64,000 nucleotides of DNA from an uncultured Bacteroidales bacterium (GCA_902802815.1 CADCNQ010000009.1:1307-65306), one strand, 5' to 3'. Positions 1-22,741 are shown, counted from the stretch's first letter. Numbers and translations: made by a program. The notes: generated from the letters alone by a model not told the origin.

Positions 1-1590
1 CGACTTTCGGGCTTCTTCTGAAACAGAGCTTTCGCATTCTGCACTTTTTCTATACCATTCTATGGCCTTTGACCGGTTCATCTCTGTCCCCAAGCCTTCT
101 TCATAAAGCTTTGCAAGTTCGAACATGGATACAATCTGTCCTTTTTCTGCTGACTGTTTAAAATAAGTGAATGCTTCTGGATATTCAAGATTAACCTTAC
201 AGATCATTCCATACTCATAGGATGCATTCTTGTCATTCATCAAAGCCCCTCTTTTAAAGAATTCATTGGCCTTTTCAGTATCCTGTCCCACTCCTAATCC
301 ATTTTTATACATATTACCAACCTCATAGCATGCCTCTCCATCATTATCTATCTTTTGACTATATATTTTGAATGCCTTCTGATAATATTTATCTGATTTT
401 ACTTTATCCTTGAATGGATAATACTTACTGATGAAGATTTCACCCATTTTAACAAATGCGTTTGTATAGCCTCTATCTGCAGCAGCCTTATAATAGGCGT
501 AAGCTTTTGGTAATGACACAAAACGTTTGTTAAGACCATTTTCATATTCGTAACCTATATTATAGATCTCTCTTGCAGAGGTCATCCCCATTAACATAGT
601 CTTATTAGCATCAACAAACTCTGTTTTACTTTCCACTGGTTCCTCAAGGCGCATTAACGCTAAACGTGCATCACAATCTAACTTTGTTGAATACTGAACT
701 GATTTTTTGTAGCTTTGAATTGCTTGAGTTATATTCTTAGTTGTCCCATGACCTTGTTCTTGCATTGTCCCGAGCATGTACAAGGCATTGGATTTATTTT
801 CATTTTCGTTAGTGGCACATTTCAAGAACATATTGTAGGCCTTCTCATAATCTTTTTCTGCATAATAATAGCTTGCCAACTTATACGCGCACCAATTATC
901 ACCTTCACTAATAGCCTTTTCATAATATTGAATCATCTTTTCTTTACTTAAAGCAACACCAGCTCCACGTTCATATGATTCACCCATATACCGATAAGAC
1001 GGAGCGTAGCCAACATTCGCAAGCAGATTGAAAACAGCAAAAGATTTGCTATAGTCCTCTTCCTTGTAAAACGCCTTTGCCCTCTCAAACATCTGCACTT
1101 TGTCCGTTGCGATATTTAAATCGCCAATTCCGGATTTCACAATATTAGCAACCTCTGCACGGGCATTCTTTATCTGACCAAGCATCAACTTAAATGTCCT
1201 CCTAAACGTATTGGCATTAGTACAAAACAGTTCGCTCTCATAAAAATATGATTTTTTTAGACAATACAACTTGACAGTTTTATGTTGACCGACAAGAGAG
1301 ATACAGTTTGTCACCACCGCTTCCGTAAACTCATCATTATACAAAAACTGATTATAGAGAGTTACTAAGAAAGGCTCTGTCCATCTGGAGTCCACTGAAA
1401 CATAATATGTGTCATCGTCATATGTAAATTTAATATCACCATCTGTATCAATGTCCGGATTAAAGCCTTCTATTCCTAGAGTGTTGAACAGTTCACGTCT
1501 AAACGCGCTTTGCTTCTCATTCAGTTCGTTTGCAGCGAAAGAAATAAACGATAGAAGGGAAAACAATATAGAGAGAGAGAATTTTTTCAT
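1..1590 (-). CDS. Secreted Sel1-like (SLR/TPR-type) repeat protein. The N-terminus is complete and the C-terminal end runs off the window (partial).
   Basis: Not in the supplied ORF track because there is no stop codon in the window. My own reverse-strand translation from ATG at 1588-1590 (MKKFSLSILFSLLSFISFAANELNEKQSAFRRELFNTLGIEGFNPDIDTDGDIKF...) stays open for 530 codons to nt 1. It has a hydrophobic signal-like N-terminus. Sel1-type units recur, e.g. YRYMGESYERGAGVALSKEKMIQYYEKAISEG, YEVGNMYKNGLGVGQDTEKANEFFKRGA and FELAKLYEEGLGTEMNRSKAIEWYRKSAE. Confidence 0.75.
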   Translation of the reverse strand, partial: MKKFSLSILFSLLSFISFAANELNEKQSAFRRELFNTLGIEGFNPDIDTDGDIKFTYDDDTYYVSVDSRWTEPFLVTLYNQFLYNDEFTEAVVTNCISLVGQHKTVKLYCLKKSYFYESELFCTNANTFRRTFKLMLGQIKNARAEVANIVKSGIGDLNIATDKVQMFERAKAFYKEEDYSKSFAVFNLLANVGYAPSYRYMGESYERGAGVALSKEKMIQYYEKAISEGDNWCAYKLASYYYAEKDYEKAYNMFLKCATNENENKSNALYMLGTMQEQGHGTTKNITQAIQSYKKSVQYSTKLDCDARLALMRLEEPVESKTEFVDANKTMLMGMTSAREIYNIGYEYENGLNKRFVSLPKAYAYYKAAADRGYTNAFVKMGEIFISKYYPFKDKVKSDKYYQKAFKIYSQKIDNDGEACYEVGNMYKNGLGVGQDTEKANEFFKRGALMNDKNASYEYGMICKVNLEYPEAFTYFKQSAEKGQIVSMFELAKLYEEGLGTEMNRSKAIEWYRKSAECESSVSEEARKS

Positions 1591-1594
1591 AATA

Positions 1595-2041
1595 TTATTG
1601 ATTTACAATTTGTTTATATGCCGCTTTCATTTGGCTTAATAATGTAGAAAACACATCTATAAAATCAGAAGATGACACTAAATACATCTCTGATGAAATT
1701 ACGACTCCGTTTTCTTTAGCACATACCTTTATCCCTAATTTTGCATTATATGAGTTAATGTTTTTAGCTATAGTCCCTTGCTTGATTGTATCCGAGTATT
1801 TGACGTAACGACATAAACGAAGATACATCGGACTCTTCTCATCCTTATCAATTTCAATGTAATAGTTTGAGCCTTCACTTTTAAATTTTAATCCGTCAGA
1901 CTGATTCTCCGGGTTTAGTCCTTGACGCGAGAGATAGGAACTTATATCACTACGCAGTTCTTCCTGAGCTTGAGTGTAGTTCTGTGCATACATAAAAACC
2001 GAGCACCAGAACAATACTAAAAATGCAAATTTCTTTTTCAT
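1595..2041 (-). CDS. Small secreted protein of unknown function, related to the N-terminal module of the adjacent Sel1-repeat protein.
   Basis: 148-aa ORF with a signal-like N-terminus (MKKKFAFLVLFWCSVFMYAQ). Residues ~20-85 align with residues ~21-85 of the 1..1590 product, sharing G[FL]NP, DG.[IL]KF and YY[VI].[VI]D. There is a 4-nt gap to the downstream gene and a 6-nt gap to the upstream gene. Confidence 0.6.
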   Translation of the reverse strand: MKKKFAFLVLFWCSVFMYAQNYTQAQEELRSDISSYLSRQGLNPENQSDGLKFKSEGSNYYIEIDKDEKSPMYLRLCRYVKYSDTIKQGTIAKNINSYNAKLGIKVCAKENGVVISSEMYLVSSSDFIDVFSTLLSQMKAAYKQIVNQ

Positions 2042-2047
2042 ATCATT

Positions 2048-4576: not shown

Positions 4577-4582
4577 AACGAT

Positions 4583-5599
4583 TTATTTTAGTGCTCCAGA
4601 AATTCTTTGTTTGATAGTCTGTCTCATGTTTTGGTCACCTTTAACAAAATTATCAAATTCTTCGCGTGTATAATTAAACTTATTTATATACTCTGTCTCT
4701 TTATTATCTTCTAAATACTTCTTTATTGCAGCCACCGGAATCTCCACTTCTTCTGCCCATTTGGCATCTTGTGCTCCAGCCCCCCCATAACCTATTGCGT
4801 TTTTTATCTGCGATGGTGGATTAGATACGATGTCTATTAGCCGTTGTAGTTCCATTGTAGCATATCTGTATTCTTTAACACGTTCTATTTCCGATTGCAA
4901 TTCTGCATAATGTGCAGAAGACAAATGGTCTTGAGGAATTTTAGATGTTTTCTGAAGAACATCCCTTACAAGATTTCGGTTGTAAATACTATATTGTATC
5001 TCTAGCAAGTCGAATATTGCTTCATATTCATCACGCAAAACGTAATCTCCTATATTCTCAAGTCTTTTTTTAACTTCTTTTCTTTTGGAATTCAACTCAT
5101 CTTTCGTAGAGAATCCTCTTAATGAAAAACTTGCCAAGAAGTTCTCTATATCATTACGTCTATTCGTTGGTTCTACAGGTCTCTCTACAGGCGGCTGCCT
5201 TTCCGAATTTCTGACATCGCGAATTCCTCCTACAGGAGGCTGTTCCGGCATCACTCTTTCCTCATTTTTAGGAGCTGTCTGCGGAGTTATGATTTGCATT
5301 GAATCCATTAACTCTTTTATCTTTCCATCAAGTTTTTGGGCTCCATCATATATTCTTGGGATTTGTGCATTTATCTGTTTCATTAGACTTATAATCTTTG
5401 CATTGTCTGATTTTTCAGATAAAATTGCAAAAGACTCTTGAATTGCCCTAATATGTTTTGATATACTGTCACACAACTTGCAATACTCGCTCAAGTTCGT
5501 ATTCAAATTGCCTCTCAATATCTCATTTTGCAGATTTTGAGCACTTACCGTATATATACCTACAATGGCAAAAAATGCTGATATTATAAACCTTTTCAT
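4583..5599 (-). CDS. Exported, mostly helical protein of unknown function with a central Pro/Arg-rich linker.
   Basis: The ORF track gives 4583..5614. The likelier start is the internal Met at 5599 (MKRFIISAFFAIVGIYTVSAQ, signal-peptide-like), which leaves a 1-nt gap to the upstream stop at 5601. I recognise no catalytic motif. Confidence 0.6.
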   Translation of the reverse strand: MKRFIISAFFAIVGIYTVSAQNLQNEILRGNLNTNLSEYCKLCDSISKHIRAIQESFAILSEKSDNAKIISLMKQINAQIPRIYDGAQKLDGKIKELMDSMQIITPQTAPKNEERVMPEQPPVGGIRDVRNSERQPPVERPVEPTNRRNDIENFLASFSLRGFSTKDELNSKRKEVKKRLENIGDYVLRDEYEAIFDLLEIQYSIYNRNLVRDVLQKTSKIPQDHLSSAHYAELQSEIERVKEYRYATMELQRLIDIVSNPPSQIKNAIGYGGAGAQDAKWAEEVEIPVAAIKKYLEDNKETEYINKFNYTREEFDNFVKGDQNMRQTIKQRISGALK

Positions 5600-5600
5600 A

Positions 5601-6434
5601 TTAATGGTTACCATTTATAAAGTTATTTAATTTTGATGTAGCAGTTGAATTGGTAGAAATCTCCTTAAATCTGTCAAAGTCTCTCTGAGCTTGCTCCAAA
5701 GCCTGCCATTTAGGAACTCCCTTCTTGATTTGGCTGTAATAATGTTCTTCCACACAATTTTCGAGATTTGTATAATACTCGGATTCTGCTTTTGCCAGGT
5801 TATATGATAGATTCTCTATCTTTGCTCGTATTTCCGGGTTTTTACTAAAATGCGATTTGTAGTACTTCATCCCTTGTATACGGCCTTTCATCGTTTCTGC
5901 CGTTCCTGCATTAAATGCCTTTAACGGGTCAGAATACTTGGCATTTGAACTGAACGAGCAACAGGCAATAACTGTTCTGTATTCATGAATCATATTAAGC
6001 CCCTGTGTAAGATTACTATTACTTCCAGCTTTAAGACTTTCCAGGAATTTCAAATTAGAGTCTAAAGAATTAACTTTATCTGACGGATAGGATGATTGGC
6101 TGAACAACTTGTCTGCATACTCAAACATTGCCTTACATGATTCTGTATAAAGGTACAAACTAAGAGAATTCTTTTCGCCAGGCTGGAGGTTCCCATCTTT
6201 AGCAAAAGTATTTATCTTATTTTGCAGATTTTTATATGCTTGCTGACTCCATTTCCATTCCTTCCCTCTCTCAATGACTTTACACAAATCATTTATTTCT
6301 GTTTCAAACTTTTTGGCGCAACTGGAAGTCACTCCAGCTTTGCTACCACTGTTACCGCCTTGTGTAATGAGAAGGAGCAAGGACACAGCTCCTACTAATA
6401 GGGCGGCTATTATCAATAATTTAATGTATTTCAT
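5601..6434 (-). CDS. Membrane-anchored or exported protein of unknown function.
   Basis: 277-aa ORF with an N-terminal hydrophobic segment (MKYIKLLIIAALLVGAVSLLLLITQGG). The rest is helical-looking and K/N/S-rich. It is tightly packed within the operon. Confidence 0.55.
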   Translation of the reverse strand: MKYIKLLIIAALLVGAVSLLLLITQGGNSGSKAGVTSSCAKKFETEINDLCKVIERGKEWKWSQQAYKNLQNKINTFAKDGNLQPGEKNSLSLYLYTESCKAMFEYADKLFSQSSYPSDKVNSLDSNLKFLESLKAGSNSNLTQGLNMIHEYRTVIACCSFSSNAKYSDPLKAFNAGTAETMKGRIQGMKYYKSHFSKNPEIRAKIENLSYNLAKAESEYYTNLENCVEEHYYSQIKKGVPKWQALEQAQRDFDRFKEISTNSTATSKLNNFINGNH

Positions 6435-6451
6435 TTTCTCTCTATGACTAT

Positions 6452-9001
6452 TTAATAACTACTATATATTTCGTCATATAACCCTTGCAAAGTATGATAT
6501 GTTATACGACCTTTAGAATCCTTGTAAATATCTCTTGTGTGGTCCGGCGGAATCCTATCAAAAATCTTGTTGTATACTTTCTTCTGTTCGTCCGAAAGTT
6601 TTAATTTCTCACTCGAACCTGAATAGGCAATTTTTCCAGGATATTTTTTATTTTCTCCAGTAATATCTCTCAACACGCTCTTCAGGGCATCAATACGCTG
6701 TTTAACAGTCACATTACCATCAATTATTTTATTTTCATCTCCTGTATAATTTCGCAATTCTGTAAGTGTAATGTCTGGAGATTTGAGCCGGTCGAAATCA
6801 GGTTGTTGTCCCGCCATACCTTTGTCGGGATACGTACTTGAACCGGATCCCATTTCCCTATAGTTCTTGTTTTCAACCAGACGCTCTAACTCTCTGGAAA
6901 AATCGCTATCCTCTAATTTATTAATTTTATTAATCCACGATTCCTTTTCATCTTTATTCTTAAACATTGTCATATTAACTAATTCTTCATACCATTTTAG
7001 TTGAGAACAAAGAATATTTAAATTTACTGATTGCGTGCCATGTGATGCAAGATTGTCATTAGATATTTCCTGGTCAACAATTTGGTAAAACTTTTTTCCG
7101 CATAAGAAGGATACTCTTATATAGAAGCGTTGGCTATTACAGCTTTCTTTTATTGTTAACTTATGACGGAGATATTGTTTTGAATTAGAACATGAGTCCT
7201 CGGTATCTTGAAGCAAGTAATCTTCATCTTGTTTTAGCGGTTCTTTATCTTCATCCAACAGCAGAAAGTTATAATTCATATAATTATTTGCTTTTCCTTC
7301 CTGACAAACTTCAATAAAATCCCGCATGCTTTCATTATCTGTATTATCATGATAGGTCAAATAGCACCAACGCTCTTCAGAGGTTTCTTCTGTTTCTTCA
7401 CCTCTGCCAGTAAGTTGTTGCTTAGTTTTCTGGGCATTTTGGAAAGCCCACCATCCCCCACCACCAAGGACTAACAAAAAGATTGGAATTATGGCCACAT
7501 ATCTATGCCATCTAAACTTCTGGTTTCTTCTATTACCAGATTCATTATTCCCATCTTGTACACCACCCAAACTTACCTTTGACGATGTGGGGAATTTGGG
7601 TTGAACCACGACAGTAGTTCCAACAGATTTAATTGGAACGACAGGCTTCCTTACATCAACTCTTCTTTGTTGTAGATTGTTAATAGTCCAAGTACCATTG
7701 CTATGAATAATTAAAGGTTGTTCCGGAGCCACATAATGTTCTGTGTCAACAAATACATTCCAATCTGCTACTCTGCCAGGCAAATGAATCATGCTTTGGT
7801 TTGAAAAGGGTAGAACTTGTCCTGTGCTTTTGTTTACAAATGAAATGGTAAGTCCCAACTGAGATGAATTGACTGGTAAACTGAATCCCTGTTGGACATA
7901 GATTTTATGTTCCTGACCATTACTCAATCGAGATAAATCCAGCCTTTCACTCCTTGAGCTTATGGAAAATGTCGGATTCTCCGCAATAACCTTTTTATCT
8001 TCATATATTTCTGAGCCACGGAACGTAAAGGTATCAGAGGAGATTGGTTGACGAGAACCGTCTGCAAAGACGATTGAAGGCAAGACCTGATCTAAATTTA
8101 CTGGAGTGCTGGTTGAGATATCAACAAACACGAACTTAACAGTCTTTTCTTCTTTCTCGAAATTATATTGGATTTCGAGAATTTCGCCAGGCATTATCCT
8201 GCCCGTTATACGAGGTTCTAAAAGGTGCTCAATAACATCGTTATAAGTACCATCTATCGGGAATTGTTTCTCACCAAGTCCTGCCAGGAACTTATAAAGA
8301 GGTGCCGATAGTTTCACGGGATTTGGCAATACCGCTCCCGTATTCAAGATTCTCACTTTATATAATACGACCTCTTCTGGTTCTTCATCAATACTGTTTG
8401 GTGCTCCCACAGGTGCGCTTGGTGCGAAGAATACAAGATTATAGTTCCCATCACCATAGCTCTTCCTATACGGAGAGTCGAGATAGCTTGGCATGTCCGC
8501 TTCTGACGCTCTTACATAACCCACCTTCTTCATTGGAGAAGGATCCTCATTTATTCTCCTGCAATCCGTCGGTTTGAGAGTATAGCCTTCAAGAATTTCA
8601 GAATAGTAATCCTGCCCTAATACAGCAAGATTTTGATTAATCATCCCATCCAGAAAATTCTTTTCAAAAAAACGATCACTTACCTTTGTAAGCAGAGAAT
8701 AGACAGCCCCTTTCGGAGAACCAGCATTGGGTACAATTGTATAATTTCGTGGGATTAACAGTGATACCACAAGCTTTCCCGGTCTCCTGAAAGAGTCAAG
8801 AATTTGCGTATATTGACTAATTGCAATAAACCTTTTTGCGAAAGTAATAGAATATGCTTTCTCTTCGTTCTCCAAGAACGGAAGGAAACTATGATTGTCA
8901 AAACTGATTTTTTCGTTTCCCAACAACTCTGAAGCTGCAGGAGAGGTATAAAACCTGCCAAATCCTGTCAAGTTTCCGGATATTAATAAACTTATATTCA
9001 T
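6452..9001 (-). CDS. Large bitopic protein of unknown function: a ~500-aa N-terminal predicted cytoplasmic region, one TM helix and a ~320-aa C-terminal region.
   Basis: 849-aa ORF with a single strong TM (YVAIIPIFLLVLGGGGWWAF) preceded by a basic cluster (RRNQKFRWHR), which fits N-in topology by the positive-inside rule. I recognise no enzymatic motif. Confidence 0.6.
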   Translation of the reverse strand: MNISLLISGNLTGFGRFYTSPAASELLGNEKISFDNHSFLPFLENEEKAYSITFAKRFIAISQYTQILDSFRRPGKLVVSLLIPRNYTIVPNAGSPKGAVYSLLTKVSDRFFEKNFLDGMINQNLAVLGQDYYSEILEGYTLKPTDCRRINEDPSPMKKVGYVRASEADMPSYLDSPYRKSYGDGNYNLVFFAPSAPVGAPNSIDEEPEEVVLYKVRILNTGAVLPNPVKLSAPLYKFLAGLGEKQFPIDGTYNDVIEHLLEPRITGRIMPGEILEIQYNFEKEEKTVKFVFVDISTSTPVNLDQVLPSIVFADGSRQPISSDTFTFRGSEIYEDKKVIAENPTFSISSRSERLDLSRLSNGQEHKIYVQQGFSLPVNSSQLGLTISFVNKSTGQVLPFSNQSMIHLPGRVADWNVFVDTEHYVAPEQPLIIHSNGTWTINNLQQRRVDVRKPVVPIKSVGTTVVVQPKFPTSSKVSLGGVQDGNNESGNRRNQKFRWHRYVAIIPIFLLVLGGGGWWAFQNAQKTKQQLTGRGEETEETSEERWCYLTYHDNTDNESMRDFIEVCQEGKANNYMNYNFLLLDEDKEPLKQDEDYLLQDTEDSCSNSKQYLRHKLTIKESCNSQRFYIRVSFLCGKKFYQIVDQEISNDNLASHGTQSVNLNILCSQLKWYEELVNMTMFKNKDEKESWINKINKLEDSDFSRELERLVENKNYREMGSGSSTYPDKGMAGQQPDFDRLKSPDITLTELRNYTGDENKIIDGNVTVKQRIDALKSVLRDITGENKKYPGKIAYSGSSEKLKLSDEQKKVYNKIFDRIPPDHTRDIYKDSKGRITYHTLQGLYDEIYSSY

Positions 9002-9013
9002 TGTCTTTTCTTT

Positions 9014-10849
9014 TTAGCTATTAAACCACTCCTTAAGTCTGTCACCCCATGTCTTTTGACGAAGAGACGTGGTGTTTGCCTGAATAACACGGAGGATTTT
9101 CAAAGAATCTGTTTCGTCAAATGTATATACATCTCCCGGCATGAATTTACCAACACAGAACGGGAAGAGTCCCACCTGAAAGCCTGTTGCTTTATTGATG
9201 TCATACGTTTCACATATTCTCTTGATTCGGTTCAAAACAGCTTGATATCCCTGCTGAACAAGGAGTTCCCTAATAACATTTTCATCAGCATAATCACCCA
9301 ACGTATCGCTCTTTGTAAGAATAATGTGGATTGCCGTCACTTTTCTCATAAGTTCTTTATTCTTTTCCAACAAAGAAGCGATACAATTCAGTACATTATC
9401 TTGCTTTACCAATTGTGTGCTGCCGTCATCCATTACTACATCTTTCTCATTGGTCGGATCTATCACAAAGAAAATCACCTTGTTATTATCATTTTGAAGG
9501 AGGCCGGCAGCTCCTGGTCCTAAATCATCAAGACTAGTTGCATTCTCAATAAAGGCAAAATCTCGTGTTTTTTCACCTGCCATTTCAATAATAGATATAT
9601 TGTGGCTGTTTCTCTCTTCATCGTCTATTAGACAATCAATGACTTGAATAAAAAAGTCGTCTGTCTTGGGTGGAAGCATACTTGAACGAGCATAGTTCTG
9701 CAATTCAACCGCATATCGGCCACCGCCACCCTCTCCTCTTGGATCAAAATCAAAGCCAAGTCTGCCACTAAGACTCAACAAACCGGCCAAAACGCACGTT
9801 TTACCAGAACCGGGAATGCCGAAGAAATATATGTCCGTATTACCTTCCGCACTATGTGGATTACTGAGATTGGACATAAGATTCTGAAGGTCGGTTCTTT
9901 GCTCATGCTTTAATGTTGGATATCTTAATATATGGTTATATCCCTTATCGGTAAGAATATAGCTTTTACTTACCAAATCATCGTAAGTAAGCGTTTTTGT
10001 ACTAATGTACTCATACATCGTATCTCTGTGATAATTGAAGGGGAAACGCTTAATATCTGTTAATAAATCACCCTTCAACTCCATTACTCTTGCATCTGCA
10101 TCTTCTCTAAAACGGCAAGATGGATGTTTACTTATAAATTCGACATAAACCTGAATCGTGTCCACTTCCTTTGCCTTAAACCAATCCTCTCTGGCGGCAA
10201 TATTTTCTTGAGTCCACGTCAATAACTCAGAAGCCTTGTTAATATAATCTTTCGCTGTCTCTGTCGTATTTCTTGCATATTTCTGAATAAAAGCATTGAT
10301 TTCCGACACACGCTTGTAATCGTCCTCTATCACCTTCAGACGGTTAAAATCCTCTATGATGGTTCCATTTGCAATTGCTTCTATTTTTTTACGAGCTTCA
10401 TCCAGTTCTGGACTTTCAAATGTACCACCCCTACGGGAAATGAAACTCTCAACTCCAAGCCATTTATCTACAAAATCATTGATAGTATTGACATCCGACG
10501 AAAGCGATATATTGGTCCATTCATTCTTAATTTCGTCCAACGCCAACTTTACAAGATTATCTTTTGCGGATTCAAGATAAGTATCAGGGAATAAACCTTG
10601 TTCTATCTTTTGGATATACTCCATTAAACTGTTTATCGAACCTTTGCTGGCTTCCCAAATTTTTTCTTTTGCCTGATCATTAAACCTCTGTTCCAGTTCA
10701 TTTATTTTTTTATAATTAACATCTCTCAAGCCTTCTATCGTAATTCCTGAATTCGGATTAAGACATAAGTCTAATAGTTGTTGCAAAGGCATTGCATTAC
10801 ACCTTTGATAAACAGCATCTATTTGTTTCTGAGTTAACTCTTCTCCCAT
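9014..10849 (-). CDS. P-loop GTPase: a Ras/TRAFAC-like C-terminal G domain with a ~330-aa helical N-terminal region.
   Basis: 611-aa ORF. G1/Walker A is FFGIPGSGKTCVL. A G3-like element is ISIIEMAGEKT. G4 (N/T)KxD is HIILTKSD. No TM segment is present. Confidence 0.7.
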   Translation of the reverse strand: MGEELTQKQIDAVYQRCNAMPLQQLLDLCLNPNSGITIEGLRDVNYKKINELEQRFNDQAKEKIWEASKGSINSLMEYIQKIEQGLFPDTYLESAKDNLVKLALDEIKNEWTNISLSSDVNTINDFVDKWLGVESFISRRGGTFESPELDEARKKIEAIANGTIIEDFNRLKVIEDDYKRVSEINAFIQKYARNTTETAKDYINKASELLTWTQENIAAREDWFKAKEVDTIQVYVEFISKHPSCRFREDADARVMELKGDLLTDIKRFPFNYHRDTMYEYISTKTLTYDDLVSKSYILTDKGYNHILRYPTLKHEQRTDLQNLMSNLSNPHSAEGNTDIYFFGIPGSGKTCVLAGLLSLSGRLGFDFDPRGEGGGGRYAVELQNYARSSMLPPKTDDFFIQVIDCLIDDEERNSHNISIIEMAGEKTRDFAFIENATSLDDLGPGAAGLLQNDNNKVIFFVIDPTNEKDVVMDDGSTQLVKQDNVLNCIASLLEKNKELMRKVTAIHIILTKSDTLGDYADENVIRELLVQQGYQAVLNRIKRICETYDINKATGFQVGLFPFCVGKFMPGDVYTFDETDSLKILRVIQANTTSLRQKTWGDRLKEWFNS

Positions 10850-10895
10850 AATATGCTAATTTTTATGATTTATTCCTTTATTTATATATGTATCT

Positions 10896-11849: not shown

Positions 11850-11870
11850 AGTTTTAATATTTAATTGTTA

Positions 11871-14621: not shown

Positions 14622-14622
14622 G

Positions 14623-17547
14623 TTACAAGGTAGCTAATTCCTTATATGATTGCAATAAAACACCAAGTTGTTTATTGGCTTCCACATCATAGTTGGGTAC
14701 ATCATAAGATGCGATAAAGGATATCAGAAGCAAATCTATCCACTTGTTGTAGTTAATAAATGATGGCAGAGATGTGAGCATGGCATTCTCTTCCGTTGGA
14801 CGAATATCATCAAACAAATCCGAAAGTTCTTCATTTGACATGGGAACCTTGTCGGTCATTCCATAATCAAAAGACAGATGAAGATTATTCTTTTCATTTA
14901 TCAACTTTAGGTCTGCTATCTTTTCATCTGAATAGTGGTTATATCCAAAAGTAACAACAAATTCATTTATAATCTCTGCTGTTGTATCTGCTATCATATC
15001 CAATATCTGATGAGGAACAGAAATGGCATCAACAAACGGACTAATGGTTTTTGCAATGAATGCGACCAACTTTGTCGTGTCTGCAACAGCTTTGATGTTC
15101 TCTATAAGATCGAGAACAATAAGAGTGTTGCAGCCCTCTGCTTCATAATATTTCAAGTTTTTCTGTGCCTTAATATCCTCAATCCATTTATTGACGATAC
15201 CTTCTGCTAACTGTTCTGAATTGCTCTTCTGCTTGAAGTTACATTCAAATAACTTCTCAAGAGAGATTCCTTTGACCCCCTCAAAGAATTCCTTACAGTC
15301 AAGAACCGTGGGATAATGATACTCCTGACGTAATATCTCCAAATTTTCTTCGAATGTATTAGTTGAAGATATACGACCATGACAACGAGACAGGATTAAG
15401 TCATATTCTTTCATATCTCTGTCAACAATCATCTTTGTGTTGTTCAAAGAATTATAATAGAAATCAAAAACGTAATCCTCACTAACCTGTAAGTTCTGTA
15501 TCATTCGGCCGAAGAAATAATTGTCCTTACCACAGACCACATCAAACTCTGCCACAATACACCCACTCCGCATAATAGCCTTCTGGAGGATGTTCTCGTC
15601 GTTATCATCATGATAATACTCTTGCATTAACTGATATGTCTGGGCATGAAGTCCTTTAACCTCTGACTGATACTTGTACAAACGACTTTCTTTTGCATTA
15701 GTCGCGACAATCCCAAGATTCTCAATTATGCGCGTGGCACCGTCGTTGTTCATCGTTGCTGCAGCATCCCATGCCAATTCGGGGTCTTCAAAGAATGTAG
15801 TAACATAAGGGCTTGTTATGAAACTTTTTCGTAATTCTTGATGGAACTGTATATCTATTTCCGATGTCTCCACACCTTGAGTGTCAAATCCCTCAAACAG
15901 ACGATTGCCATTGACACCAGACCACTTATAATCTCTCAACAAATAAGTATTGCGGAATCCACCTCTTTCTGTCCAATTACTAAACCAGCTCAAACTATCT
16001 GCTTGCAACACCTGATCATATAAAACTTTTTTATAACGGTCTTCCCACCTCTTTTCTATCTGATCATCGCCTCCGCTTTGTACAGAATGACTCATATCTA
16101 TGTTAAACTTGGTCGCAACCATAAATAATGGAGATACTATACTTTTATCTAAGTAAGTTGTACGTTCCTTAACTGTTGAGCCCATGTTTTGTTTCACCCA
16201 TTGTTCAACCAGCCCAGGCATAACAGTTGGACCATTCTGCATATGGTCGTGGCAAAGCATTAGAACATTTATCAATCGTTCATCACTATATTTATTAAAT
16301 AGGTAACGAACCTTACCACGGAGCATCATTTTATTGTTAAGTTCTATCTTTATTTGTTCTTCCTGCAATTCAAGTGCTGCACGCGCTCCGGGAAAGTCAA
16401 AAATATCAACCGTATTCAAGAACTGTTTGCTTACTTTCTTATTCCAACCTTTGGAGAGAAGACGCTGACGATTACCATCTTCTGTGATACCATCAAGATT
16501 ATATGTCAGTTCTTCATTTATCGTTTCTTCTGGAATCTGGAACACGACTTCAGCAGAAATAGCAGAAAGGACACTCTTGGAGAAACCCTCTACAATCTTC
16601 TTTTCTTCTGTAAGGAGGTCTGTCCCCATATCAGGATCTGTGTTTCCTGTCGTTGGAGAAGCAACATCTAGTTTTTGTAAGCAAAGAGAACTCATTAGTG
16701 TAGTTGTCGTATTCAATAACGCAGAAATGGGAACATATACTCGCTTCGAGAAAGCAAGTGTCTCATATCCTTGAAGCATTCTTACAAAAAGACTTGTTAT
16801 GTCAGAATTATCATACCATAATTTAGACATCAATTGAGGCCATTCGCGTGGTTGAACATAAGGAATAATGCGTGCCAGGACATCAAAGAAACGAGAATCA
16901 AGCAACTCCTTTGCTTTTGTTATACCAACATGACCTTCAACATATTCACGTACGTTCATTATGTCATCTTCGTCAAGAACATTTTGAACTTTTGGAACAC
17001 CTTTATAACGCCTTTCCTGAGCCAACATGAACTCATCAATATCTTCCCTGTCTATAACAGAATGTGACTTGACATCATTGTATGCAGTATCACATAATAT
17101 CTGAAGCATATCAGCTATGGACAAGACCTTAACCATGATTGGATAGTTCTCGTCAGGCACTTCATAACTACAAGTAAATCGCGTTGCCACACCTGTAGCC
17201 TCAGTATCACGGGTAATGGGGTTAAACTGCTCAACAAAATTATAAGACTCGCCGGTCTTAGGATCCTGTACCATAAATTGCTGGCCCTTTCGCGCAAGCA
17301 GAGAACTAATAACATAGCTCTTACCCTTCTGACTCTCCCCGAATGCTGCAATAGCAGGATTACTCTCCAACGAGAAGCGAAATCTTTTTAACTGTCTTCT
17401 TATATTCACCAATTTCTTGAAAGTCTCTTCACGGCGGCTCTCCTGTAAATGGTTGTCACCCCATTTGATGAAATTATTGATAGAATTGATTTGATCTGTT
17501 ACGTTTTTTATCAATTCACCATTTTGGGTCTCTATTATATCGTTCAT
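14623..17547 (-). CDS. Large P-loop NTPase (GTPase-like), SrfC-like.
   Basis: 974-aa ORF. Walker A is AAFGESQKGKSYVISSLL. A switch-I-like Thr sits in ITRDTEATGVATRF. A Walker B/DxxG-like element is VDIFDFPGARA. Its size and its position immediately downstream of an SrfB-like gene mirror the srfB-srfC pairing. The family assignment is from memory and has not been searched. Confidence 0.6.
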   Translation of the reverse strand: MNDIIETQNGELIKNVTDQINSINNFIKWGDNHLQESRREETFKKLVNIRRQLKRFRFSLESNPAIAAFGESQKGKSYVISSLLARKGQQFMVQDPKTGESYNFVEQFNPITRDTEATGVATRFTCSYEVPDENYPIMVKVLSIADMLQILCDTAYNDVKSHSVIDREDIDEFMLAQERRYKGVPKVQNVLDEDDIMNVREYVEGHVGITKAKELLDSRFFDVLARIIPYVQPREWPQLMSKLWYDNSDITSLFVRMLQGYETLAFSKRVYVPISALLNTTTTLMSSLCLQKLDVASPTTGNTDPDMGTDLLTEEKKIVEGFSKSVLSAISAEVVFQIPEETINEELTYNLDGITEDGNRQRLLSKGWNKKVSKQFLNTVDIFDFPGARAALELQEEQIKIELNNKMMLRGKVRYLFNKYSDERLINVLMLCHDHMQNGPTVMPGLVEQWVKQNMGSTVKERTTYLDKSIVSPLFMVATKFNIDMSHSVQSGGDDQIEKRWEDRYKKVLYDQVLQADSLSWFSNWTERGGFRNTYLLRDYKWSGVNGNRLFEGFDTQGVETSEIDIQFHQELRKSFITSPYVTTFFEDPELAWDAAATMNNDGATRIIENLGIVATNAKESRLYKYQSEVKGLHAQTYQLMQEYYHDDNDENILQKAIMRSGCIVAEFDVVCGKDNYFFGRMIQNLQVSEDYVFDFYYNSLNNTKMIVDRDMKEYDLILSRCHGRISSTNTFEENLEILRQEYHYPTVLDCKEFFEGVKGISLEKLFECNFKQKSNSEQLAEGIVNKWIEDIKAQKNLKYYEAEGCNTLIVLDLIENIKAVADTTKLVAFIAKTISPFVDAISVPHQILDMIADTTAEIINEFVVTFGYNHYSDEKIADLKLINEKNNLHLSFDYGMTDKVPMSNEELSDLFDDIRPTEENAMLTSLPSFINYNKWIDLLLISFIASYDVPNYDVEANKQLGVLLQSYKELATL

Positions 17548-17561
17548 AATCCTACTTGTTT

Positions 17562-20500
17562 TTAACCATTAATACTTAAAACGAACTCACCCTTATCAAG
17601 CCAGTAGGCACCGTCACTGGCAAGACTTTGAACCCCAAAACTCAGTTTCTGTTGAGAGAACGGCTTACCCATAGCATCAATTGCAGAAACTATTTTCAAC
17701 TCTTCCTTGTCCTGGGAATAATTTCTCACTACGGAAACCTTTAAAGGTAATGATACAGTATGCAAATCTACGCCTTCCGCTAAATTGAGCGCGAATATGG
17801 GACGCGCTTGATAAAACTGCGAGACCAGTTGCTTACAACCAATAAATAGAGGGAATCCATGAACTTCAAAAGTTGCTGTATTTTGATCTGGTGTAAGTAT
17901 GGCCTCGGATACTTTTTGATTGACCACATTATACAGTCCCATATAATTAGCCGTAGATACCATATCTTTCTTTAAATGGGTCATGTCCATGTGAAATCCG
18001 TTGATGCCGCCATTTGACGACATGTAACCTATCATGGCACCAATGGCAACCAAGGACTTCTGATCCTTGAAATATCCAAGTCCATCAGCGAAGGGGTACC
18101 ATTCACCAACACGGTAGTCGTTAAGACGGATAAGACGATTAGGAGAAGTTGGATAATACTTCAGGAACAAATCCGTAATTGCAGTTAACGATGTTGGTTT
18201 ACCGGCAAGTAAAACAATATCACAATTATATGTATTGAGCACTATGGCGAGCTGCTTCATCAAAGGCTCTATCTTGGTAATGATTATGTTTGAAAGGATA
18301 CTCTCATCAAAATTCCAAACAATCTTCTTGAAATCGAAATTGACATAAGACTTCCCGTTGGCTTCAATACTAAAATGCTTGTTAAAATGCTCTAAGATAA
18401 AACTTGCAGGCTGAAGTTCTCCAAAGAAATCCTCATATTTAAGCCTCATCGATTTACGTCCAAGACGCAACATGTCAAGCATCTTAAGCCCCATCGGAAC
18501 TGAGACCTGAACATTGAAATCCTGACGCATGATTCTGTCTTTATAGTCCATCAAAGCTTTGTCCTTTCCAAAGAAATTGTGAATACGCTCTGATGTCTCA
18601 CGTGATGCGTATGTGTATTTTATCTCTTGCTTCTCTGCATCTGATAAATTACTTAAATTTATCTTTCCTTTCAGATTTAGAGCTTCTACAAAATCATCAT
18701 CAGACAAAGCCATATAATTAGAACAAATCGCATTGAAGATAGGACCTTCATAAAGTTGACCAAGTCCTTTATTCTTACCTTCAATAATAACTGCTCTGAC
18801 AATTTCCTCAAGGATGTCGTCTCCAGCATAGTAGAAACTGTCCCAGAACAAAGGTTTGGGTGTAAGCTTACATACACCTTTCTCATCATATTTGTAGGCG
18901 CATATCATCAAGTCTGTTGTTCCTGCGCCAATGTCAACCGAACCAATTGTCAAAGAGTTCTTCTTATAATCATCTTCCAAGAACTCCTTACGCACATGAC
19001 CATATAGGTTAAAAAAGTCCTCACAATGATTGAGATAACGTTGTGCCACCTCCGCATACAGGTAAACCAATTGGCAACATGTGGCTTCATCATATCCCCA
19101 TTCTGTCTTGATGCGCTGTGTTGCGGGATTGTTCGGGTTTGTTGTCAGGTCTTTGACAGAAGGAATAATCTGAATCTTTCCTTGCCATTCCGCCGGGTCG
19201 TAAGGTTGATAATATAAATCCGGATCCTTACAACGAAGAAGGGATATATAAGCGTCCTCCGCACATTGACGAAGTATTACCTGTTCTTCCTTCGGCATTG
19301 CGGTGGGACAGGTAATAATGATGCTTCTCAATTTCCTCGGGATATTAATATCTCCATGTTTTTCCCGGAATCCCGGACTATTTATCTGACAATTGGCTTG
19401 CTGGAAAATCTCAATCATCACAAATGTCATTAACGACCTGCGAGAGAATGAGCTAAAGATTCCACCATTCTTGCTTCTACGCAATGTTCCGTCGCTATCG
19501 AATTGTTCTGATAGACCCTTAATGTTAATGTAATGATTCAGCGAAGAATTCTCATCTTCTTCCGTCGTAAGGAAGTCCCATTGCCCTTCAAATTGTTTAT
19601 TATCCCACAAATATCTCTTAGGGCTGGAATAGTTCGTCGTTTTTTGCGCTACTCCATTGGCTGGACGAGACTTATAAATCAATTTTATAGCTTCATCACC
19701 GATGCGTAAAAAGCTCTGCCAAGAAAACTGGTCGGGAACATCCATTTCACCAAATTTACAATGATGAAATGCTAAGCGCATATCAAAAGGCTTTTTGTAT
19801 ACTCTCCAAGGTTCTGACAAATCTTGAAGTTGAAGCATATCTACCTTTGTAAAATTTGCATCTTCAAACAATACCCCACACGTGCGAGAGTTGCCAATAT
19901 CAAGCACCAAGTCCACAGGTTTTGTCTCTTGATCATCCGTATAAAGTATAATTTCAGGAGTTAGCCCTATCTTTTGTATGTAAGACACAATTGTTATATA
20001 ATAAGCAATATAATGGAAATGCGAGATGTCACCCTCTGCAGACGTAAGTTCTGTATTCTCTTTGTTGCCATGTATAAGTGTTGCTATATATTCATCTACC
20101 CATTCACAGTCATAAGGTTTGGGAGAAAAGAAGTTAAACAACAATGAGATGTCTTTGCTGATTGAATAGTGTTTTTCTTCCTCACCATCATAGAAGAAAG
20201 GCTTATTCCCAGATATATCATTCTTAACTGATGTAGTGTCAAATGCCCAAACGACATGATAACGCCTTATGTTTTTTATTTTTGACGATGGAACAAGCTT
20301 CATGCGACACCATCCAGTCGGTCCAAACACGCTATTCCCCTGACTATCCTTTTCAAACATCGGCATTGGTAACCATTGGTTTTCTATCGCATCAAGAGGA
20401 CAGGTCCCCTTAGCTAAACGCTCTGTTATTGAGCCAGCAAAACAATAATCACTATAGCAATCTTTTTCATCTAGCACATCAAGCGTGGTAAAATCTATCT

Positions 20501-20813
20501 TACTTTCATCCACTATACGTTCATTACCATCAGAATCAAGGTATAGGTATGGAATCGGTTTATGATTCCTTAACTCATCAAGTCTAACTATCTGACCACC
20601 CGTAAAATTGACTGCCATCTCCAATGTCCACACGTCATCCATGATGTTGTAACTTTCATGGAACACCATAGGAACATCAAAGTCATTTTCGTCTTTGATG
20701 GTTAACGGACTCAAGAAGTTACCTTCTTTGTCAACAAAACTTTCTTCTGGTTTAATTTCAAAATCAGATGAAAAAAACTGAATGCCTGTGTTGGCAATTA
20801 GTGAAATGTTCAT
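17562..20813 (-). CDS. Very large Hsp70/actin-fold (ASKHA) ATPase, SrfB-like.
   Basis: The ORF track gives 17562..20873. The likelier start is ATG at 20811-20813 (MNISLIANTG...), 5 nt after the upstream stop. ASKHA motifs are phosphate-1 VDLVLDIGNSRTCGVLF, phosphate-2 GSVDIGAGTTDLMICAY and an adenosine-like CDIVLLAGKPTSL. Confidence 0.65.
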   Translation of the reverse strand: MNISLIANTGIQFFSSDFEIKPEESFVDKEGNFLSPLTIKDENDFDVPMVFHESYNIMDDVWTLEMAVNFTGGQIVRLDELRNHKPIPYLYLDSDGNERIVDESKIDFTTLDVLDEKDCYSDYCFAGSITERLAKGTCPLDAIENQWLPMPMFEKDSQGNSVFGPTGWCRMKLVPSSKIKNIRRYHVVWAFDTTSVKNDISGNKPFFYDGEEEKHYSISKDISLLFNFFSPKPYDCEWVDEYIATLIHGNKENTELTSAEGDISHFHYIAYYITIVSYIQKIGLTPEIILYTDDQETKPVDLVLDIGNSRTCGVLFEDANFTKVDMLQLQDLSEPWRVYKKPFDMRLAFHHCKFGEMDVPDQFSWQSFLRIGDEAIKLIYKSRPANGVAQKTTNYSSPKRYLWDNKQFEGQWDFLTTEEDENSSLNHYINIKGLSEQFDSDGTLRRSKNGGIFSSFSRRSLMTFVMIEIFQQANCQINSPGFREKHGDINIPRKLRSIIITCPTAMPKEEQVILRQCAEDAYISLLRCKDPDLYYQPYDPAEWQGKIQIIPSVKDLTTNPNNPATQRIKTEWGYDEATCCQLVYLYAEVAQRYLNHCEDFFNLYGHVRKEFLEDDYKKNSLTIGSVDIGAGTTDLMICAYKYDEKGVCKLTPKPLFWDSFYYAGDDILEEIVRAVIIEGKNKGLGQLYEGPIFNAICSNYMALSDDDFVEALNLKGKINLSNLSDAEKQEIKYTYASRETSERIHNFFGKDKALMDYKDRIMRQDFNVQVSVPMGLKMLDMLRLGRKSMRLKYEDFFGELQPASFILEHFNKHFSIEANGKSYVNFDFKKIVWNFDESILSNIIITKIEPLMKQLAIVLNTYNCDIVLLAGKPTSLTAITDLFLKYYPTSPNRLIRLNDYRVGEWYPFADGLGYFKDQKSLVAIGAMIGYMSSNGGINGFHMDMTHLKKDMVSTANYMGLYNVVNQKVSEAILTPDQNTATFEVHGFPLFIGCKQLVSQFYQARPIFALNLAEGVDLHTVSLPLKVSVVRNYSQDKEELKIVSAIDAMGKPFSQQKLSFGVQSLASDGAYWLDKGEFVLSING

Positions 20814-20818
20814 ATCTT

Positions 20819-21079
20819 TTATAATGTTATTATCAATAATAAAATATGTAATGTTAAAAACAACGGTATGCAAACCTGAAACATTTTATGATTAGTCTTA
20901 TGATGGAAACCATACATAGCCAACATCGCTCCCAATGAGCCTCCTCCTGCAGCGATTGCAAGAAGAACAGATTCTGATACGCGCCACTTATTTATGACTG
21001 CACAGTGCTTATCGTAACCATAAATTCCAAAAGAAATAATATTTAGTAGAAACACATAAACAATAATAATATACATCAT
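20819..21079 (-). CDS. DUF1294-family small membrane protein.
   Basis: 86-aa ORF with the motif pattern YDKHCAVINKWRVSESVLLAIAAGGGSLGAMLAMYGFHHKTNHKMF. This is characteristic of DUF1294 (YDK..A....WR[IV].E..L......GG..GA......F.HKT.K..F). Confidence 0.7.
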   Translation of the reverse strand: MMYIIIVYVFLLNIISFGIYGYDKHCAVINKWRVSESVLLAIAAGGGSLGAMLAMYGFHHKTNHKMFQVCIPLFLTLHILLLIITL

Positions 21080-21100
21080 GCCCTCTAACTTACTTTATCT

Positions 21101-21772
21101 TTACTTTATCACTTGTATAAAAGCTGTAGGTATATAAGCTGTTGAAATTAGCCCAACCTCGGTTATATTTACTATAACCCTCTGCTGACCTGACACTCTA
21201 GCAACCCTTCCTTCTACACCTTTAAATGCCCCGTCTGTTATCCTGACAATATCTCCGCTCTTGAAGTGGCACTGTGACTCGTCCACAAACTTTAAATGCT
21301 CACTGTTATTACAAGTGGCCATAATGAAGTTTTCCATTTCCTTGCGTGAAATTACCAAGGGTGGATTCTTTAGATTCTCATTATGTTGAAAATGATTATA
21401 ATAGTATGTAAGATAAGATATTGAGGGCGTATTTCTAACATACTCTTCTGCCTTCTCGCTAGTGGTATAAACAAAAAGAAGGTTCGGTATTAAGGACTCC
21501 AGAACCTTCTTTTGTTTACCATTTATCATCTTACGGGCATAACGCTTAGCAACATAAACAAATGTTCCGTCTGATATGATGTAATCCGATGCCTTATCTT
21601 CTCTTCCATATGAAGCACGAAACACATACCATTTCTTTGATGAGGTCGGCACATATCTTACCGACACCCCAGTCGCTGAACTTTTTGCTTCGGGGATGGT
21701 ATCAGAGATAAGTCTAACACAGGGAGGATTTGTCTCGCCTCCACAAGTAGCAACATTAGACAATGTGCTCAT
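21101..21772 (-). CDS. UpxY-family (NusG-like specialised paralog) transcription antiterminator.
   Basis: The ORF track gives 21101..21829. The likelier start is the internal Met at 21772 (MSTLSNV...). The NGN-like start is KKWYVFRASYGREDKASDYI. The C-terminal KOW motif is GDIVRITDGAFKGVEGRVARVSGQQRVIV. It is the first gene of the minus-strand block. Confidence 0.8.
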   Translation of the reverse strand: MSTLSNVATCGGETNPPCVRLISDTIPEAKSSATGVSVRYVPTSSKKWYVFRASYGREDKASDYIISDGTFVYVAKRYARKMINGKQKKVLESLIPNLLFVYTTSEKAEEYVRNTPSISYLTYYYNHFQHNENLKNPPLVISRKEMENFIMATCNNSEHLKFVDESQCHFKSGDIVRITDGAFKGVEGRVARVSGQQRVIVNITEVGLISTAYIPTAFIQVIK

Positions 21773-21831
21773 AATAGACCTTTTGTATCGGTCATAAATC
21801 GTATAAATGAAAAAGCGTGGAGACCACATCT

Positions 21832-22710: not shown

Positions 22711-22741
22711 CTGGCGTCACATAGTTTTATTAAGAGTTGAT

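Follow-up and report, generated by a model that had tools for sequence, protein, structure and literature searches.

A rearranged SrfABC gene set with two membrane-anchored proteases and a GTPase module in a mobile cassette of Bacteroidales

Results and discussion

A compact minus-strand gene block in an AT-rich island

We analyzed a 64,000-nucleotide (nt) stretch of DNA from an uncultured Bacteroidales bacterium (GCA_902802815.1, CADCNQ010000009.1:1307-65306), hereafter called the window. Its positions 1-21829 are occupied by a cassette of 13 consecutive minus-strand open reading frames (ORFs), which encode, among others, homologs of SrfA, SrfB, and SrfC, a GTPase, and two membrane-anchored proteases (Table 1). 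The ORF coordinates agreed with the tightly spaced block of 13 genes described in an initial annotation, which had been made from the sequence alone. In the order of transcription, 21 nt separate the UpxY-like gene from the DUF1294 gene, and 5 nt separate the latter from SrfB if SrfB starts at the ATG at position 20813. The junctions from SrfB to the gene for p277 measure, in order, 14, 1, 21, 46, 12, and 17 nt; the p277 and p343 genes overlap by 14 nt, and the last three junctions amount to 6, 6, and 4 nt. Terminator-like sites numbered 7, versus 12.4 expected in shuffled sequence. SrfB most likely starts at ATG 20813 (1083 amino acids, aa) and not at an upstream TTG, in agreement with its orthologs and with the gene calls on other contigs. 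The assignments to NusG plus KOW, DUF1294, SrfB, SrfC/Virul_Fac, Peptidase_S8, Trypsin_2, and Sel1 were all confirmed with Pfam.

The content in guanine plus cytosine (GC) is 0.35-0.40 over positions 1-22000, 0.47 at 22-24 kb, and ~0.47-0.56 further right; for the cassette as a whole it is 37%, as compared with 53% for the host. The right flank is ordinary Bacteroidales chromosome, with genes for GH43 enzymes, a rhamnogalacturonan lyase, a hybrid two-component regulator, and phosphoenolpyruvate carboxykinase. Both the suspected foreign composition of the block and its continuation past the left edge of the window held true, the latter on an 87-kb contig (L009; L numbers designate the loci compared) that carries identical proteins. 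There, the AT-rich, same-strand island extends at least 8.4 kb to the left of window position 1 and comprises at least eight more genes after Sel1.

Table 1. Features of the cassette and of its surroundings (window positions, unless a contig is named; TM, transmembrane segment)
Feature	Position	Strand	Details
Candidate Bacteroidota -7 promoter box TACTTTTG	22167..22174	-	~340 nt upstream of first gene; read from sequence
Long imperfect hairpin in 5' leader	21835..22047	-	ends just before UpxY-like start codon; inverted repeats I1 and I3
UpxY-type NusG paralog, heads operon	21101..21829	-	Pfam NusG E 8e-9, KOW E 1.5e-5
DUF1294 small membrane protein, 3 predicted TM	20819..21079	-	PF06961 E 1.4e-21; TM scan
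SrfB, 1083 aa, cytoplasmic, actin/Hsp70-type ATPase motifs	17562..20813	-	PF07520 E 1.1e-185
SrfC, 974 aa, cytoplasmic P-loop NTPase, long helical C-terminal part	14623..17547	-	PF10139 E 1.9e-102
SrfA homolog with inserted subtilase (S8/SrfA), 916 aa	11871..14621	-	Peptidase_S8 E 1e-48; NCBIfam SrfA_fam C-terminal E 1.4e-10
Polytopic membrane protein, 317 aa	10896..11849	-	three N-terminal TM, ~170-aa helical loop domain, C-terminal TM
GTPase, 611 aa	9014..10849	-	~330-aa all-helical N-terminal repeat region, then TRAFAC-type G domain
Bitopic p849, 849 aa, GTPase partner	6452..9001	-	alpha/beta N-domain 1-~200, two beta-sandwiches, TM 502-520, helical C-terminus
277-aa helical protein (p277), N-terminal signal anchor	5601..6434	-	TM aa 6-24
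343-aa exported helical protein (p343), signal peptide	4583..5614	-	predicted cleavage VSA|QN
S1 bitopic protein, 842 aa	2048..4576	-	Trypsin_2 E 7e-12; Big_1/MG4/CarboxypepD_reg repeats
Small secreted protein p148	1595..2041	-	signal peptide read from sequence; BLASTP vs Sel1 protein aa 1-149 E 1e-11
Secreted protein, p148-like domain then Sel1 repeats	1..1590	-	Sel1 E 3e-30; cut by window edge
Island extension	L009 12370-20447	same as cassette	35-39% GC, at least 8 genes after Sel1

The first module is a rearranged srfABC set

Two of the cytoplasmic proteins belong to named families: SrfB scored 620 bits with PF07520 (cut-off 27) and SrfC 344 bits with PF10139, Virul_Fac (cut-off 28), each covering most of its Pfam model in two stretches. 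The SrfB motifs VDLxLDxGNxxTCG, SxDIGxGTTD, and LxxGxP are invariant from Bacteroidales to Enterobacteria, and they are typical of actin/Hsp70-fold ATPases, to which SrfB would belong as judged by these motifs. In SrfC, the invariant motifs are GxSQxGKS (Walker A) and DIxDxPGxR. Its G1, switch-I-like, and DxPG motifs resemble those of dynamin, yet no Dynamin_N hit was obtained, and we treat this resemblance as a weak lead, not as evidence.

The third protein had been annotated as an S8 protease, which is correct but incomplete, as it also carries SrfA-N and SrfA-C. It consists of SrfA-N (aa ~1-150), a disordered linker, a TM (aa ~305-323), the S8 domain (aa 475-744), and SrfA-C (aa ~813-905). 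When compared with proteobacterial SrfA (comparison set: Salmonella, Klebsiella, Rahnella plasmids), its N-domain aligned with SrfA-N (hhalign E 4.5e-9, probability 96%), and its last ~95 residues matched positions 332-427 of the NCBIfam model NF040486 (E 1.4e-10). The score with the whole SrfA model was 41 bits, below the cut-off of 150, because of the inserted subtilase and the divergence of the N-domain. The protein has thus the features of a SrfA: SrfA-N, a single TM with a bias for the N-in orientation, and a lipocalin-like SrfA-C, which has a GLW motif and four cysteines in its C-terminal region. The S8 triad (D483/H522/N638/S708) is intact and conserved in every ortholog examined. A recent preprint describes SrfA as a bitopic protein with a cytoplasmic, noncatalytic kinase-like SrfA-N, a disordered linker, a TM, and a periplasmic, disulfide-bearing, lipocalin-like SrfA-C (10.64898/2026.09.18.752743). 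The S8 protein reproduces this layout, with a subtilase added after the TM.

The initial annotation had stated that the component set matches no named system, although it half-suspected this relationship. This statement does not stand, since the first module is a srfABC operon in the order B-C-A. On the basis of sequence, the cassette contains a complete, rearranged srfABC set, with a homolog of each of the three proteins, and encodes a further bitopic protein of the SrfA-N type. It differs in several respects from the srfABC operons of Proteobacteria, in which the order is A-B-C: it belongs to another phylum (Bacteroidota), it is not limited to three genes, a triad-intact subtilase of ~270 aa is inserted between the TM and SrfA-C, and it additionally encodes another protein of the SrfA-N type, which has a trypsin domain, as well as a GTPase module and a head made up of NusG and DUF1294; the Lol-like ABC, vWA, and FGE neighbors of the proteobacterial genes are absent. 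No paper on SrfB loci in Bacteroidota was found in the literature.

On the Klebsiella plasmid pPM48_140 (L024, 3785-18814), srfABC is flanked by glycine-zipper, vWA, Lol-like ABC, and SUMF1/FGE genes. We take these neighbors to resemble the TagQRST-type signaling module of type VI secretion systems (T6SS), with the Lol-like ABC and FGE genes recalling TagS/T/R; this is of note in view of the TagF-like fold that is predicted for p849 (see below). Klebsiella accounted for 114 of the 144 plasmid records with a SrfB match. Proteobacterial srfABC loci have been reported to lie beside genes for the post-translational control of T6SS (PMC6950479).

A second SrfA-N-type bitopic protein ends in a trypsin-like protease

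The S1 protein consists of an N-domain (aa 1-135), a linker, three beta-sandwich repeats, a TM (aa ~470-488), and a trypsin/HtrA-like protease domain (aa ~561-842), of which the triad H578/D709/S796 is intact and conserved in every ortholog examined. Its N-domain aligned with that of the S8 protein (hhalign E 1.6e-7, probability 94%) and with proteobacterial SrfA-N (E 9e-6, probability 83%). An exhaustive phmmer search with the S1 N-domain yielded 81 representative proteins, which with few exceptions carry the domain at their very N-terminus. Among the 80 that were scanned, 37 contained macroglobulin (MG)/immunoglobulin (Ig)-like repeats, 14 trypsin, 4 DUF805, and 2 matched the NCBIfam SrfA family; single relatives were fused to ADP-ribosylglycohydrolase, CD225, or RDD. 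SrfA-N appears from these fusions to behave as a portable adaptor module.

A single TM is present in each of the S8, p849, and S1 proteins, all of which lack an N-terminal signal peptide. A TM scan and counts of lysine and arginine across the orthologs supported the N-in topology that had been predicted for the S8 protein and p849, for which the bias was clear. The orientation of the S1 protein, initially assumed by analogy, is modestly favored as N-in by the same bias.

The smaller exported proteins are less easily classified. Orthologs of p277 occur in all full loci (36-70% identity), with no family match in Pfam. The fastest-evolving protein of the set is p343, with at most 35% identity in the nearest loci and two smaller genes in its place in L004, L005, L007, and L008. 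The Sel1 protein is 541 aa long in L009, and its full gene is also present in L001; its N-domain, which is shared with p148, showed a weak TY-Chap1/YbjN-like match (E 0.0075).

The second module comprises a GTPase and a bitopic partner

The second module begins with the 317-aa membrane protein. The TM scan detected its TM1, TM2, and C-terminal TM, the third N-terminal TM (aa ~75-95) being read from the sequence. This protein had no family match in Pfam; an ortholog is present in Runella (hhalign E 3.7e-6 over 250 columns).

The GTPase displays the G motifs GxPGSGKT, IEMxGE, and TKSD, and IEMxGE, which contains a Walker-B glutamate, is invariant in 15 sequences. Such a glutamate defines the DO-GTPases of Kaur, Burroughs, Iyer, and Aravind (eLife 2020). 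The match to DO-GTPase2 was weak and below threshold (E 2e-3 to 3e-4): PF19993 gave 18.1 bits with the window GTPase and 20.8 bits with that of L005, and the Runella protein matched DO-GTPase1 (PF19975) with 16.4 bits, all under the cut-off of 27. Some relatives carry a precomputed PF19993 hit. An AlphaFold2 (AF2) model of the GTPase (predicted local distance difference test, pLDDT, 79) retrieved generic GTPases with Foldseek (EF-Tu, Rab8, G-alpha, EHD, septin, SR-beta), and searches of PDB sequences with single sequences and profiles gave no useful match for either the GTPase or p849. The N-terminal region (9847-10849) is made of ~45-residue repeats of the type FIxK...G.Y....L..A, of which the number varies between orthologs (608 to 655 aa and more) and which have a weak YfiO/BamD-like tetratricopeptide-repeat match.

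The partner of the GTPase, p849, had no Pfam or NCBIfam match in six orthologs. In an AF2 model of its aa 1-500 (pLDDT 80), an N-domain with the order beta-beta-alpha-beta-beta-beta-alpha precedes two beta-sandwiches, which matched Ig-like adhesins with Foldseek. The model also matched TagF structures (6iz8, 2qnu, 9t0n; probability 0.87-0.94, E about 1e-2) and, weakly, the longin domain of Lst4. In our own reading of these models, the ~170-column TagF alignments span the N-domain, the fold of which would be longin-like. TagF is a T6SS regulator whose likeness to the p849 N-domain concerns the predicted fold, with no sequence similarity; p849 is bitopic and 849 aa long, no T6SS genes were present among the window genes examined, and p849 does not qualify as a TagF. 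The cytoplasmic N-domain is 40-70% identical to that of orthologs, as compared with 9-25% for the outer C-terminus. Two other identities were rejected: p849 gave no GAP1 hit in six orthologs, even at E values up to 5, and is analogous to GAP1 in position only; and its N-domain is not a third SrfA-N (hhalign E 0.3-0.4).

In L026 (21226-21648) and in the Runella locus L021 (20667-21140), the bitopic GTPase partner is followed by a small protein with a signal peptide, which duplicates the final ~110 residues of the partner in free form (69% identical in L026). One outer domain thus exists in tethered and free versions; the window has no such gene.

The cassette is conserved as a unit and exchanged between genomes

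A scan of species-representative genomes disclosed at least seven Bacteroidales loci with the same genes, in the same order wherever the contig was long enough, and with a GC content of 0.37-0.61. They include Xylanibacter muris and Bacteroides sp. OF04-15BH as well as metagenome-assembled genomes of Prevotella, Alloprevotella, and others. Because the same genes are found in the same order in independent genomes, the arrangement is far beyond chance.

Identity to the window declines along the operon: it is 78-94% for SrfB, the most conserved gene of the cassette, 63-93% for SrfC, 48-78% for the GTPase, 30-47% for p849, and at most 35% for p343 where this is not replaced. At 90% identity, the SrfB cluster had 289 members, as against 1 in that of the GTPase and 2 in that of p849. 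Three different upstream flanks were observed, namely genes of a polysaccharide utilization locus in the window, a VapE-type primase with DUF3791/DUF3990 in L026, and BlaR/BlaI with an M20 peptidase in X. muris; together with the low GC, they bear out the idea of a foreign, variable island. L026 is the nearest locus in terms of SrfB and SrfC, which are 93-94% identical to the window proteins, versus 35-54% for the four-TM protein, the GTPase, p849, and p277; the opposite trend is seen in X. muris, with values of 88-89% for SrfB and SrfC and 70-78% for module 2. This mosaic of similarities indicates recombination between the modules near the S8/SrfA gene. The comparisons show, at the level of sequence, a set that is conserved as a unit and that moves between genomes, its modules recombining. 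In X. muris, the S8/SrfA gene is split (L002 6179-8965; L029/L030 12924-15698) into ORFs of ~770 and 130 aa, by a frameshift or as a pseudogene.

A related arrangement lies outside Bacteroidales, on plasmid pSP2_1 of Runella sp. SP2 (L021; class Cytophagia). It encodes SrfB, SrfC, S8/SrfA, the four-TM protein, the GTPase, a bitopic protein of 784 aa, and small exported proteins, and ends with a bitopic protein of 1101 aa that has a head of the SrfA-N type but lacks a protease. The sequence homology of the 784-aa protein to p849 is marginal (E 0.025), and we regard the two as equivalent in position and architecture. A BREX-1 cluster (PglZ, BrxL, restriction endonuclease, AAA ATPase; L021 1-6121) ends 1.3 kb before the Runella cassette, and a DDE transposase gene follows the latter.

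An origin from a phage or prophage was considered and rejected: no relative of the GTPase was found in IMG/VR, where only one contig carries SrfB and SrfC. In this contig, which is classed as viral (L031, 432-5893), the two genes lie at the contig end, encode proteins ~31-33% identical to those of the window, and are not accompanied by S8, GTPase, or protease genes.

The extension of the island in L009 encodes a 288-aa secreted protein, a multi-TM protein, a coiled-coil lipoprotein, a MORN-GH25 lysozyme, and a BspA-type leucine-rich-repeat (LRR) protein, as well as two secreted paralogs of 507 and 515 aa that are ~91% identical over their first ~375 residues and have unrelated C-termini. Several of these genes recur downstream of the cassette in metagenomic loci, of which L013 adds a C10 peptidase, a fusion of a SrfA-N-type head with DUF805, and a short GTPase paralog. 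Peptidases of types M12 and C10 are among the neighbors in related loci, and GH25 in this genome. In L013 (17384-19484), the SrfA-N-type/DUF805 protein (301 aa) is directly followed by the GTPase paralog (375 aa), which is devoid of the N-terminal helical part; the two resemble a further adaptor-GTPase pair, of minimal design, within the island.

Proposed mode of action

We propose that the cassette is a mobile two-module system of the SrfABC type, in which NTPases sitting on SrfA-N-type adaptors gate periplasm-facing proteases, probably in conflicts at the envelope. We hold this reading tentatively, at slightly less than an even chance of being right. SrfB and SrfC would come together on the SrfA-N-type domains that both bitopic proteases expose to the cytoplasm; such docking is proposed because the Xenorhabdus SrfA, SrfB, and SrfC proteins form a heteromeric complex, as observed by pairwise co-immunoprecipitation (PMC6950479), and because an AlphaFold 3 model places SrfB, and then SrfC, onto SrfA, with SrfA-N as the suggested platform (10.64898/2026.09.18.752743). 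The GTPase would switch its longin/TagF-like bitopic partner p849. Binding or hydrolysis of nucleoside triphosphates (NTP) would then be relayed across the inner membrane, clustering or activating the periplasm-facing proteases, and these would cleave co-encoded exported proteins or foreign or self envelope proteins. That cytoplasmic NTPases act through bitopic adaptors on envelope proteases had been suggested initially. The architecture behind this suggestion, with three cytoplasmic NTPases and three N-in bitopic proteins, two of them bearing outward-facing, triad-intact serine proteases, is supported, and the SrfA-N homology of both protease N-domains lends substance to the adaptors; the inside-out control and the role in conflict are inferred.

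Since there is no NTP in the periplasm, a cytoplasmic energy source working through bitopic proteins is a familiar solution, found in FtsEX-EnvC and in the mycosin-containing type VII secretion systems (T7SS). In FtsEX-EnvC/PcsB, a cytoplasmic NTPase is coupled via membrane proteins to hydrolases that lie outside the inner membrane. The analogy with the present cassette is mechanistic only, as there is no homology, the hydrolases are bitopic here, and the NTPase folds differ. Mycosin (MycP) is part of the NTPase-driven membrane complex of T7SS and scored best among the NCBIfam models with the S8 domain (E 3e-35); both are membrane-tethered, outward-facing subtilases. However, the score with TIGR03921 (122 bits, cut-off 278.75) does not make the S8 domain a mycosin, the anchor is N-terminal to the protease rather than C-terminal as in mycosin, and no other T7SS component is present here.

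A role in envelope conflict rather than in housekeeping is suggested by the hypervariable outer domains and the variable exported enzymes: the fast-evolving outer domains, the lysozyme in this genome, and the cysteine and metallopeptidases in related loci point to it. The replacement of p343 in some loci, the small 90%-identity clusters of the GTPase and p849, the varied fusion partners of the SrfA-N-type domain, and the BREX genes beside the Runella copy go in the same direction.

Several observations weigh against this proposal. The only published activity of SrfABC, cytotoxicity to eukaryotic cells, which like the heteromeric complex is known from Xenorhabdus only (PMC6950479), is not explained by it. 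The protease domains themselves are not hypervariable, and the S1 protein and p849 would bear Ig-like repeats in the cytoplasm, which is unusual. PADLOC-DB 2.0 returned only generic protease models (subtilase, IetS with E 4e-4, RT-Protease) and no system-specific component. Neither SrfB nor SrfC matched a PDB sequence in searches with single sequences and profiles, SrfC matched neither Dynamin_N nor any other P-loop model in Pfam at E values up to 10, and the actin fold of SrfB and the NTPase class of SrfC are assigned from motifs. Finally, the similarity of p849 to TagF is modest and at the level of the fold (E about 1e-2, target-normalized TM-score about 0.33), and TagF was not found in a profile search of PDB sequences.

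Alternative explanations

In one alternative, the SrfABC core and the proteases would be released, for instance in outer-membrane or outer-inner-membrane vesicles, or would load the co-encoded secreted proteins for export, the NTPases serving for assembly or vesicle formation and the targets being host or competitor cells. In Xenorhabdus, SrfABC has cytotoxic and insecticidal activity, which is complete only when the three components are together (PMC6950479); the preprint argues for vesicle export of membrane-anchored SrfA (10.64898/2026.09.18.752743); and the signal-peptide proteins of the island (BspA-type LRR, GH25 lysozyme/MORN, C10, M12, and the paralogs with swapped C-termini) are typical of factors directed at hosts or competitors. 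Yet SrfB, SrfC, and the GTPase lack signal peptides and are the most conserved parts, not the most variable ones, no outer-membrane channel or known secretion component was detected in the Pfam and NCBIfam scans, and the cytotoxicity was obtained with lysates and by transfection, not by natural delivery (PMC6950479). Moreover, the exported proteins carry ordinary Sec signals and do not need cytoplasmic NTPases to cross the inner membrane, which also counts against such a delivery function. We consider it unlikely, though it fares best among the alternatives.

The initial annotation had evoked the logic of the conflict systems of Kaur et al., and this comparison was partly borne out. As in the DO-GTPase/GAP1 systems, a TRAFAC GTPase with a Walker-B glutamate is followed by a large partner with a C-terminal TM, and beta-sandwich repeat proteins, membrane proximity, a nearby ATPase of the actin/Hsp70 fold, mobility, and variable accessory genes are found as well; in the GAP1-N2 systems, too, there are proteins with beta-sandwich repeats and trypsin partners (Kaur et al. 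2020). In contrast to these systems, the GTPase is under both Pfam thresholds (16-21 bits versus 27), the ATPase is SrfB rather than an Hsp70 with GrpE or DnaJ, and the window contains no GAP1-N/M/C, zinc ribbons, or paired GTPases, the N-terminus of the GTPase being helical and devoid of cysteine clusters. SrfB, Virul_Fac, and DUF1294 are not mentioned in that paper. On this model, the NTPases would detect an invader in the cytoplasm, set a threshold, and then trigger the proteases, which would break down the envelope and so act as suicide effectors. The mobility and patchy distribution of the cassette and its position directly after BREX-1 in Runella would fit with such abortive infection, as would the relation of the GTPase to DO-GTPases. 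Apart from the missing GAP1 partner and the lack of a PADLOC match, it is opposed by the fact that the hypervariable parts face outward and not the cytoplasm, where phage components are sensed, by the many secreted accessory proteins, which fit poorly, and by the failure to find the GTPase module in viral contigs. We regard it as improbable.

Still more doubtful is the possibility that the cassette is a bacterial membrane-remodeling machine that follows a eukaryote-like logic, composed of actin-fold SrfB, dynamin-like SrfC, a small-GTPase switch with its longin-like regulator, and SrfA-N-type tethers to the inner membrane. Such a machine would deform the membrane locally or release vesicles to deploy proteases and effectors against competitors, phage, or host. 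If this were true, the proteobacterial SrfABC loci would represent the minimal form of the machine.

The maturation or degradation of envelope proteins is a common task of HtrA-like and subtilase proteases, Sel1 and chaperone-like proteins serve as adaptors, and UpxY-type antiterminators normally head surface-polysaccharide operons. A function in envelope maintenance or in the maturation of surface proteins, for instance the quality control of a lineage-specific surface structure, with no role in conflict, would agree with this. It is difficult to reconcile with a compositionally foreign cassette that is absent from most genomes, has varied insertion sites, and exchanges modules between lineages. 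Furthermore, the S8/SrfA gene appears dispensable in X. muris, a cultured organism, since it is split there. Such a housekeeping function seems to us very improbable.

The idea that several unrelated operons are merely adjacent, as the different similarity patterns of modules 1 and 2 and the presence of SrfB/SrfC without module 2 in Proteobacteria and in one IMG/VR contig might suggest, is close to refuted by a gene order and a close packing that persist across the range from Prevotellaceae to Runella, and by the SrfA-N-type domain, which ties the last protease of module 2 to module 1.

Implications for SrfABC

SrfABC (SsrB-regulated factors of Salmonella, "SrfABC toxin" of Xenorhabdus) has been named a "virulence factor" since 2000, without a mechanism, and is widespread, being plasmid-borne in Klebsiella. 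The core of the cassette belongs to this named family. Four of its features appear not to have been described: the subtilase inserted into SrfA, the additional SrfA-N protein, the module with the GTPase, and the antiterminator gene at the head. The Bacteroidota form may be the more readable one, as the periplasmic part of its SrfA carries what looks like an enzyme of an obvious kind. That SrfA-N is portable and fused to many membrane-anchored partners argues that the clients of SrfB and SrfC are anchored in the membrane and are acted upon from the cytoplasm, and that the two proteins are not toxins themselves. This suggests that SrfABC-type systems, instead of being simple toxins, are energy-coupled machines that control enzymes on the outer side of the inner membrane. 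The cassette may also link SrfABC to GTPase-centered conflict systems. It points to a large, mobile, and fast-diversifying system of gut and rumen Bacteroidales that is absent from the defense and secretion models searched and from the searchable literature.

The operon head and the right boundary of the island

In the first gene, a NusG N-terminal domain and KOW are preceded by a leader of ~340 nt, as in UpxY-led operons, and we use UpxY as a label for the putative subfamily. The NusG and DUF1294 genes also head the cassette in L026/L027 and L029/L030, and no DUF1294 gene is annotated at the equivalent position of the Runella locus.

Promoters of Bacteroidota have a -7 box with the consensus TAnnTTTG, to which we presume that TACTTTTG corresponds; it is a candidate promoter only, and the sigma-70 scan does not cover promoters of this type. 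The leader hairpin (~215 nt) had a predicted folding energy of -97.9 kcal/mol (z = -8.1 versus 200 shuffles). Rfam contains no structured RNA family matching positions 1-23000, leader hairpin included. The hairpin was not found in the leaders of L026 and L029, which have other hairpins. An invertible promoter upstream of the NusG gene was considered and is unsupported, because the inverted repeats, which together form a single long hairpin, lie 3' of the candidate promoter, and because there is no invertase nearby.

Between the island and the GH43 gene, in a segment with a GC content of 0.47 (22336-23461), are two minus-strand ORFs of 124 and 239 aa without family match, which may mark the boundary of the island.

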